In this document: piece after piece, positions 41,045-41,237 of the stretch
Layout: each line of letters opens with the position of its first letter
Position numbering within the stretch: the stretch's first letter is position 1
Assembly (NCBI GenBank): GCA_964016885.1
Contig: OZ024742.1
Location: 188,418,001 to 188,482,000 of the forward strand
Length of the DNA: 64,000 nt
Reading direction: 5' to 3'
From: Eledone cirrhosa
Lineage: Eukaryota
Program-made: the position numbers and the translations under genes
Notes under the pieces: model-generated
The model's database searches: none
What the model saw: only the letters and a program-made list of their open reading frames with translations
What the model was told of the DNA's origin: nothing

Positions 41045-41235
41045 TAGGAACAAGTAAGACCCCGACTGCTGAGCTCAAGCCGTTTCGATGGCTGATTCTG
41101 TACGGAATCAGCCGTCGAAACGGCTTGAGCTCAGCCGTCGGGGTCTTACTTGTTCCTATTACCCACTCTACTACCCTAAGTATTGAGTACTTTGGTGCGT
41201 TATGGTCCACCTGTTTCCTTACCACATTTCCTTCG

Positions 41236-41237
<2 letters not shown>
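41045..41237. mobile_element. PLE family D foldback (3' half of HHR) plus tail
   Basis: About 55 bp arms; GAAACGGC-uugagcuca-GCCGUC^GGGGU. Confidence 0.85.

Follow-up and report, generated by a model that had tools for sequence, protein, structure and literature searches.

The outer ends of the miniature head-to-head insertions left by family D of the Penelope-like elements (PLEs) in the Eledone cirrhosa genome lie at two internal sites of the element, each a few nucleotides 5′ of a hairpin, and the same layout was seen in several other families. The best model for this arrangement, and in our judgement the probable one as far as sequence can tell, is hairpin-docked twin priming on one RNA with one target strand per hairpin.

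The window, by which we mean the whole stretch of 64,000 nucleotides that was analyzed (contig OZ024742.1, positions 188,418,001 to 188,482,000), had received an initial annotation in which eight junctions were quoted and a spacing rule for internal priming was proposed, with the short arm of each foldback ending just 5′ of the hairpin of the tail. All eight junctions were found in the window and the rule is supported; it also predicted a second hairpin past the tail end, and this was found. In that annotation the other arm ran to the end of the tail; the arm does carry the tail, but the tail end is a second internal site and not the 3′ end of the element or of its RNA. The best model goes beyond the earlier reading in that both arms would be internally primed.

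The family D insertion

Positions 41047-41236 read as a miniature head-to-head insertion of a family D Penelope-like element set in a (TA)n run, with the following features.

41029..41046, no strand: (TA)n target, left flank, the likely primer strand for the short arm
41047..41101, minus strand: short arm, an inverted pLTR piece of family D without tail, its outer end being start site 1
41102..41236, plus strand: long arm, a pLTR piece of family D with an 80-nt tail, its outer end being start site 2
41117..41144, plus strand: hammerhead ribozyme motif, 3′ half, with core and stem III with palindromic loop (by eye)
41157..41164, plus strand: site 1 (UAU on the RNA) and the 8-nt spacer up to hairpin 1
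41165..41188, plus strand: hairpin 1, with RCUC/GAGY lower stem, 2-nt 3′ bulge and 4-bp upper stem
41201..41203, plus strand: unused internal control site, with the same hexamer context as site 2 and no hairpin 3′ of it
41237..41267, no strand: (TA)n target, right flank, joined at site 2

The short end of family D maps to the base after 41156, that is 8 nt ahead of the hairpin at 41165-41188. Hairpin 2 is missing from this insertion and stands in full-length copies directly past the junction (L142:4993-5014). The 5′ half of the hammerhead is also missing from the copy, and its putative cut, judged by eye, falls after 41139.

Other insertions and repeats in the window

Self-comparison of the window gave many foldbacks of several families, the main ones being listed below.

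104..431, no strand: family C insertion, inverted arms without overlap, layout like L1 twin priming
2830..5478, plus strand: family F foldback, arms of more than 1 kb (end approximate)
5843..6276, minus strand: family B foldback; the autonomous B form has both hairpins
16990..17523, minus strand: family M foldback with a long-looped hairpin (start approximate)
26766..27630, plus strand: family H foldback (end approximate)
29164..29351, plus strand: family A foldback that uses the upstream TA-rich site for its short end (end coordinate approximate)
35096..36592, plus strand: family A foldback whose arms measure about 650-680 nt, with its short end 5-6 nt ahead of the hairpin (end approximate)
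36629..36766, minus strand: diverged family D copy bearing a tail
51188..51449, plus strand: second family D foldback, both ends as at 41047-41236
54937..55362, plus strand: family E foldback; the autonomous E form has both hairpins (end approximate)

The long arm of the second family D foldback retains the TATA-like and Inr-like boxes. Three of the readings in the initial annotation need adjustment: the family F junction is present and the outer pair of its hairpin is mismatched in the window copy, the family C junction is present and its arms do not overlap, and the family A end at 29162, which was put about 14 nt from the hairpin, lies about 19 nt from it in the leftmost reading, at the upstream TA-rich site. 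An origin of the foldbacks as MITEs or other DNA transposons was considered and rejected, the ends being asymmetric and the centres varying between copies, with no symmetric terminal inverted repeats copied as a unit.

Family G (9340-9570, 34640-34870, 37450-37600, 46050-46380 and 47420-47690) has three recurring end sites and no GAGY strand, and is an exception to the two-hairpin rule; two like-ended short foldbacks of it were seen (L045, L134). Family N (23715-24072) has a precise short end and a 60-nt tail in (TA)n without the hairpin motif. A SINE-like repeat at 8763-9226, with other copies at 2358, 21570, 44292, 59733 and 63019, forms an inverted head-to-head pair which possibly arose through twin or dual priming by other machinery. 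The foldback at 41881-42126 lies between (TAA)n-like repeats and not (TA)n. Positions 42148-43764 hold the RT region of a broken non-LTR retrotransposon, with related open frames in L108, L115, L121 and L135, and 57029-57973 is a transposase remnant flanked by 86-nt inverted repeats, which we take from its translation to be mariner-like. In three foldbacks at other loci (L021, L038, L234) the arms join at runs of A or T, possibly added by the RT without template. A scan of the window with Rfam gave, among 150 listed of 298 matches, only sub-threshold microRNA-like matches on repeats or foldbacks.

Precision of the short end and structure of hairpin 1

Exact-pattern counts over the 3.0 Gb genome gave 17,806 exact junctions at the family D short end, 8 nt before the hairpin, which bears out the ending of the short arm just 5′ of the tail hairpin; 18,286 read-through copies were counted besides, and reversed control patterns gave 0 matches, so the short end of family D is not a matter of chance. 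Within the following 30 nt, 347 ends were counted on the plus strand, the minus-strand count being redundant; of the 33 distinct such places listed, about 5 lie further into the hairpin and the others are the same site with a broken repeat.

A de novo set of 208 foldbacks in 47 clusters was assembled from loci L001-L270 and the window, some of the loci having been chosen on family D, A or B. The motif RCUC...GAGY starts at 20 nt or less from the short end in 16 of the 47 clusters and, for most members, at 4-12 nt in 12 of them, against a shuffle mean of 0.34 (maximum 3) and 0-2 clusters in shifted windows; the other 31 clusters, many of which are not PLE foldbacks, have none within 20 nt. In the 16 clusters the hairpin's outer pair is A-U in 8, G-C in 7 and G-U in 1, with no mismatch (Fisher p 0.0014). 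When a 2-nt 3′ bulge is given, the upper stem of 23 hairpins is paired in 60 of 69 cells, as compared with 28, 18, 16 and 29 cells when the bulge is set to 0, 1, 3 or 4 nt; shuffling the partners gave a mean of 34.7 and none of 10,000 reached 60, with four to six pair types per position. The 23 hairpins were chosen by us on the lower stem and come from families that are related and not phylogenetically independent, hence these pairing figures are not strict probabilities. On the sense strand of the upper stems G-U pairs exceed A-C mismatches by about 5 to 1. Judged by comparison of families, the hairpin is a real structure common to them with covarying pairs.

Folding of the whole leader gave nothing unusual (z -0.67 and -1.96), and the predicted stability in context was uneven, with stem probabilities of 0.02-1.0 and start sites that are not consistently unpaired. 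In Hydra consensi published for coral and sea cucumber (PMC8557442 File S7) the motif was found by eye in Hydra-2_Amil, Hydra-1_Ajap (twice) and Hydra-2_Ajap, and a variant of it in Hydra-1_Crog; in the same file no motif was seen by eye in the Hydra-1_Obim consensus, and the Hydra-1_Amil consensus does not contain the relevant region. A hammerhead cut acting as the ruler was rejected: its distance to the short end varies among families (about 17 nt in D, 21 in A, 21-25 in B, 36 in C and more than 60 in E), and site 2 has no hammerhead by eye.

Hairpin spacing and pairing with the target

The initial annotation had named two observations that would count against it, namely ends scattered regardless of the hairpin and ends explained by the nearest TA run alone, and neither agrees with the data. 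Of 162 ends from six families in 864 kb of contiguous DNA that was fetched irrespective of ends, 135 lie 5-10 nt 5′ of either hairpin, where 36.3 would be expected if all 3-nt pairing sites were equal (family K gave 0 of 2). In family D a hexamer identical to that of site 2, situated 36 nt past the start of hairpin 1, is used by none of 261 ends, while site 2 is used by 122 of them.

For a subfamily of family A the first 100 of 7,359 matches were counted by eye. About 68 of these 100 stop at a poor match 6 nt ahead of the hairpin and about 30 at a better-matching TA-rich site 17 nt away; none of the 100 ends at the site abutting the hairpin, which the pattern can see for one spacer variant only. 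The partners of ends at both sites show identical long-arm sequence. The usage in families A and D suggests that spacing dominates and pairing competes, or that later slippage shifts some ends.

Tail end and second hairpin

The spacing rule predicted a hairpin after the tail end, and a second hairpin was found. In L142 the tail ends after 4986 and is followed by 6 nt, by the second hairpin at 4993-5014 and then by the ATG. Upstream of the ORF starts of other families the second hairpin stands 6 nt (B), 7 nt (E), 8 nt (K) and about 7 nt (J) past the tail end, and in family O, known here from one copy, 8 nt. By its sequence context, the tail end is thus also internal, 6-8 nt 5′ of a second hairpin, in six families (D, B, E, K, J, O). 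Family A has a non-canonical stem 5-9 nt past its tail ends, as seen at 30 junction loci of one variant and likewise in another. Patterns for a canonical second hairpin, run over the whole genome, returned 0 matches for family C and 2 unrelated matches for family G, a result in which lack of junction copies and lack of the hairpin look alike; in families C, G and N the motif is not at every end or could not be shown there. In the best model the "tail" is the stretch between two start sites, and the tails here measure about 60-190 nt.

Leader RNA and small foldbacks

The 5′ ends of family D arms fall between -62 and -50 in 118 of 157 cases and beyond -62 in 3, in a set that was partly size-selected; where short arms were chosen solely by their junction, 25 of 30 go no further 5′ than -61. 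The A of an Inr-like box falls at position -62, and this box follows a TATA-like box by 25 nt, both boxes being named for their likeness to the consensus. Read-derived contigs, obtained from 2 runs of 1 study that is possibly the source of the assembly itself, show a 13-16-fold rise of depth and loose ends at the Inr-like base, as well as loose (TA)n ends at both start sites. The tiny foldbacks are likely run-off copies of the mRNA leader, from an RNA which would have begun 62 nt before site 1. Penelope of D. virilis has been shown to have a promoter in its pLTR (PMC2377424).

Coupling of the two ends

With arms of typical length, the genome-wide patterns for family D gave 10,484 mixed pairs of ends, 176 short-short matches (about 95 elements, as most were counted on both strands) and 44 tail-tail pairs. 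Independence of the ends predicts about 2,600 of each like-ended class, and 98.7% of the observed pairs were mixed; the three end-pair patterns differ in their anchor, so these ratios are approximate. Among 30 loci chosen on the short end alone, 27 had an adjacent head-to-head partner bearing the tail and none a short partner, and two more had distant partners.

From 93 family D foldbacks taken, 81 could be parsed. The 5′ extents of the two arms agree within 5 nt in 44, the long arm reaches further in 14 and the short arm in 23, the last figure becoming about 17 of 81 clear cases after small parsing offsets are removed; 5 of 81 have arms without overlap. Most arms overlap, by about 55 nt, and the centres often have an overlap of 0-4 nt. 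Subfamily letters match between the arms in 60 of 65 foldbacks, where a fraction of 0.30 is expected, which fits one source RNA, and single-source bursts or gene conversion could do likewise. The ORF-bearing arm may be primed from either site, as L142 is short-ended and L149 tail-ended. From their sequence, the arms are separate cDNAs, as snap-back copying cannot make arms without overlap or with the short arm further 5′.

Proposed mechanism and alternative explanations

The leader RNA would carry two bulged hairpins, each of which docks the RT and in this way fixes a start 5-9 nt upstream of itself. The GIY-YIG domain would nick both strands of the (TA)n target, each primer 3′ end would pair over about 3 bases with U-R-U, and both nicked strands would prime one cDNA each on the same RNA, running toward the RNA 5′ end, after which the cDNAs would be joined head-to-head with little or no microhomology. 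Overlap of most arms demands strand displacement or a second template; in the model the downstream cDNA would displace the upstream cDNA, and long copies would require a read-through RNA which spans the tandem junction. Binding, strand assignment, displacement and the RNA start are steps which we infer, and a dimer of the protein on the hairpins is plausible by analogy with the model drawn for the PAc element (PMC11167929).

The hairpins would fall in number with each round, from two in a junction to one in a tailed copy and none in a tail-less copy. As a hairpin is dropped each round, tandem junctions would be obligatory templates, and pLTRs, tails and inversions would be explained together. 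We lean slightly towards extending this into a programmed twin priming of Hydra-clade Penelope, in which each conserved RNA element would load the RT active site and one strand, both insertion ends would be made by RT, a hairpin would be lost per round with tandem junctions obligatory, and the arrangement would have been kept from cnidarians and echinoderms to Eledone cirrhosa.

The closest alternative keeps the starts set by hairpins and places them on two RNAs (dual priming), or on a single tandem transcript of which two repeats are used in one complex, each template being tied to a different hairpin. The overlaps of about 55 nt would then arise from two templates without displacement, about 1% of foldbacks are like-ended so that two templates are sometimes used, and the data of PMC2837659 could not distinguish twin from dual priming; however, two equal RNAs should yield many like-ended pairs where nearly all are mixed, and the non-overlapping arms and the agreement of subfamily letters fit one RNA, which leaves this reading unlikely. 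A still smaller probability is given to ends that are cut and not primed, the GIY-YIG endonuclease resolving a longer cDNA or a hybrid intermediate at a set distance from the hairpin. Such a resolution was put forward for the tail in PMC8557442, the D. virilis tail is needed for endonuclease recognition as recounted in PMC11167929, and a nuclease ruler would suit the fixed spacing equally well, but hairpin 2 is absent from the mini-insertions and must be copied and then removed each time, the excess of G-U pairs over A-C mismatches lies on the sense strand, and the tail ends of PAc coincide with RT starts in vitro (PMC11167929).

Self-priming, by which the cDNA from the tail end folds back and is copied until a stop near hairpin 1, would make the short end a termination site. 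Its geometry suits overlapping arms and the small overlaps at the centres, and it has been argued for inverted pLTRs in PMC3846280; we hold it to be very improbable here, as the short arm contains sequence missing from the long arm in the roughly 17 foldbacks noted above, 5 of them without overlap, and short-ended arms also include long copies and a whole ORF (L142). Least credible of all is that no ruler exists and the ends are set by whichever local (TA)n microhomology is best, or were shifted afterwards by slippage in the flanking repeat. Every start does sit at a short U-R-U match and about 30% of the family A ends use the better match 17 nt upstream, yet the identical hexamer of family D goes unused, the ends near the hairpins far exceed expectation (135 against 36) and in family A the poor match wins about 2 to 1. 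Microhomology or slippage is refuted as the sole cause and stays as a modifier of the hairpin-set starts.

Element identity and full-length copies

By the motif criteria of PMC8557442, applied to the sequence, family D and its relatives are assigned to the Hydra clade of Penelope-like elements. A full-length family D element lies at L142:2210-8027 with an open frame of 719 aa from the ATG at 5080; it further has a partial tandem upstream, a tailed arm in inverted orientation and a 3′ end without tail. The frame is a single ORF with RT and C-terminal GIY-YIG motifs (by eye), and the size agrees with that of the Hydra clade (about 3 kb or less), as does insertion in (TA)n. Families D, A and B have RWR, the published motif being RWK, and DKT replacing DKG; the family D protein has a CxCX5C linker, CxxC and CxH close to the C-terminus, and no CCHH. 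Membership in the Naiad or Chlamys PLEs was rejected as their endonuclease would be N-terminal and that of the family D protein is C-terminal. A Pfam search with this protein gave no match, and the 17,167 matches at E 0.001 in a protein library search served for alignment only.

The hammerhead is canonical by eye in families A and C and degenerate in the core in family D, and none is among the 150 Rfam rows listed of 298. In two published Hydra elements (PMC8557442 File S2) stem III of the hammerhead and the lower stem of the putative docking hairpin share the same four pairs. Related ORF starts were found in families A, B, E, J and K, the family B protein being about 45% identical to that of family D, and 80 further kb-scale loci searched for ORF-start junctions added no family. 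In family A 26 of 40 listed junction copies are 100% identical over 161 nt, and family B has several frames of 713 aa (L161-L190, L241-L270); these near-identical ORF starts suggest recent activity. A second kind of PLE-like ORF, with a Pfam RVT_1 match and a C-terminal EN-like region, was seen beside family D insertions (L141:956-3097, minus strand, and L144:5509-7700).

Value of the findings

The data define a cis-element and a rule for its spacing and supply natural products by the tens of thousands, and the open 719-aa frame of L142 provides an element for testing the rule. If the model is true, an RT of the sister group of telomerase would be positioned by an RNA hairpin, both insertion ends would be joined without ordinary second-strand priming, and there may be a handle on choosing the RT start inside any RNA. 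The origin of the inverted pLTRs and one-sided tail of PLEs is stated as open in PMC8557442, and no obvious mechanism for pLTR regeneration was seen in PMC2377424; two starts on one RNA would account for the one-sided Penelope tail which has been puzzling for long. Internal initiation and the tail are already known, while the paired hairpin, the spacing rule and the coupling of one end of each kind were not found in searches of open-access literature.

Comparison with known systems

For the Hydra clade an inverted 5′ copy, a one-ended tail, a (TA)n target and a pLTR hammerhead have been described (Craig et al. 2021, PMC8557442). The present families agree with it in having one short ORF, an RT followed by a C-terminal GIY-YIG, the Hydra motifs, the (TA)n target, the inverted 5′ copy and the one-ended tail, with a pLTR hammerhead that by eye is canonical in families A and C and degenerate in the core in D. 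They differ in that the published tails are of 30-40 nt and ascribed to resolution by the endonuclease, whereas those found here measure about 60-190 nt. The word "hairpin" does not occur in the main text of that paper, and its Hydra section and parts of its supplement describe no paired hairpin.

PAc, a Poseidon element of Anolis (Frangieh et al. 2024, PMC11167929), has in vitro two internal starts which bound the tail, and both target strands are cut and extended. Internal RT starts bounding the tail, the AT-rich target and starts near the pLTR-ORF junction are common to both systems. In PAc, however, the starts lie in an AC-rich stem-loop within the ORF and have no homology to the cut DNA, while here they are 5′ of a hairpin that is repeated in the 5′ UTR, and pair over about 3 nt; that paper does not assign one start to each strand.

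In L1 twin priming (PMC2837659) two target strands likewise prime two cDNAs, with a 5′ inversion and a short junction, but there it is a variant outcome in which annealing selects the internal site and the arms are free of overlap. In the elements analyzed here it would seemingly be the rule, with both sites set by RNA structure and arms that usually overlap. As in L1, an insertion comprises two fragments of a single element in opposite orientation, one for each target strand, and the internal deletion between fragments is seen in only the 5 of 81 foldbacks with non-overlapping arms; any target-site duplications are hidden by the (TA)n setting.

Telomerase RT is the sister group of PLE RT, and in telomerase RNA the template-boundary element is a helix 5′ of the template which is bound by the RT and sets the stop. 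In both cases an RT-bound RNA helix would fix the place of templating; in telomerase it stands 5′ of the template and sets the stop, whereas the hairpin described here lies on the 3′ side of the template, from where it would determine the start. The comparison is one of layout.
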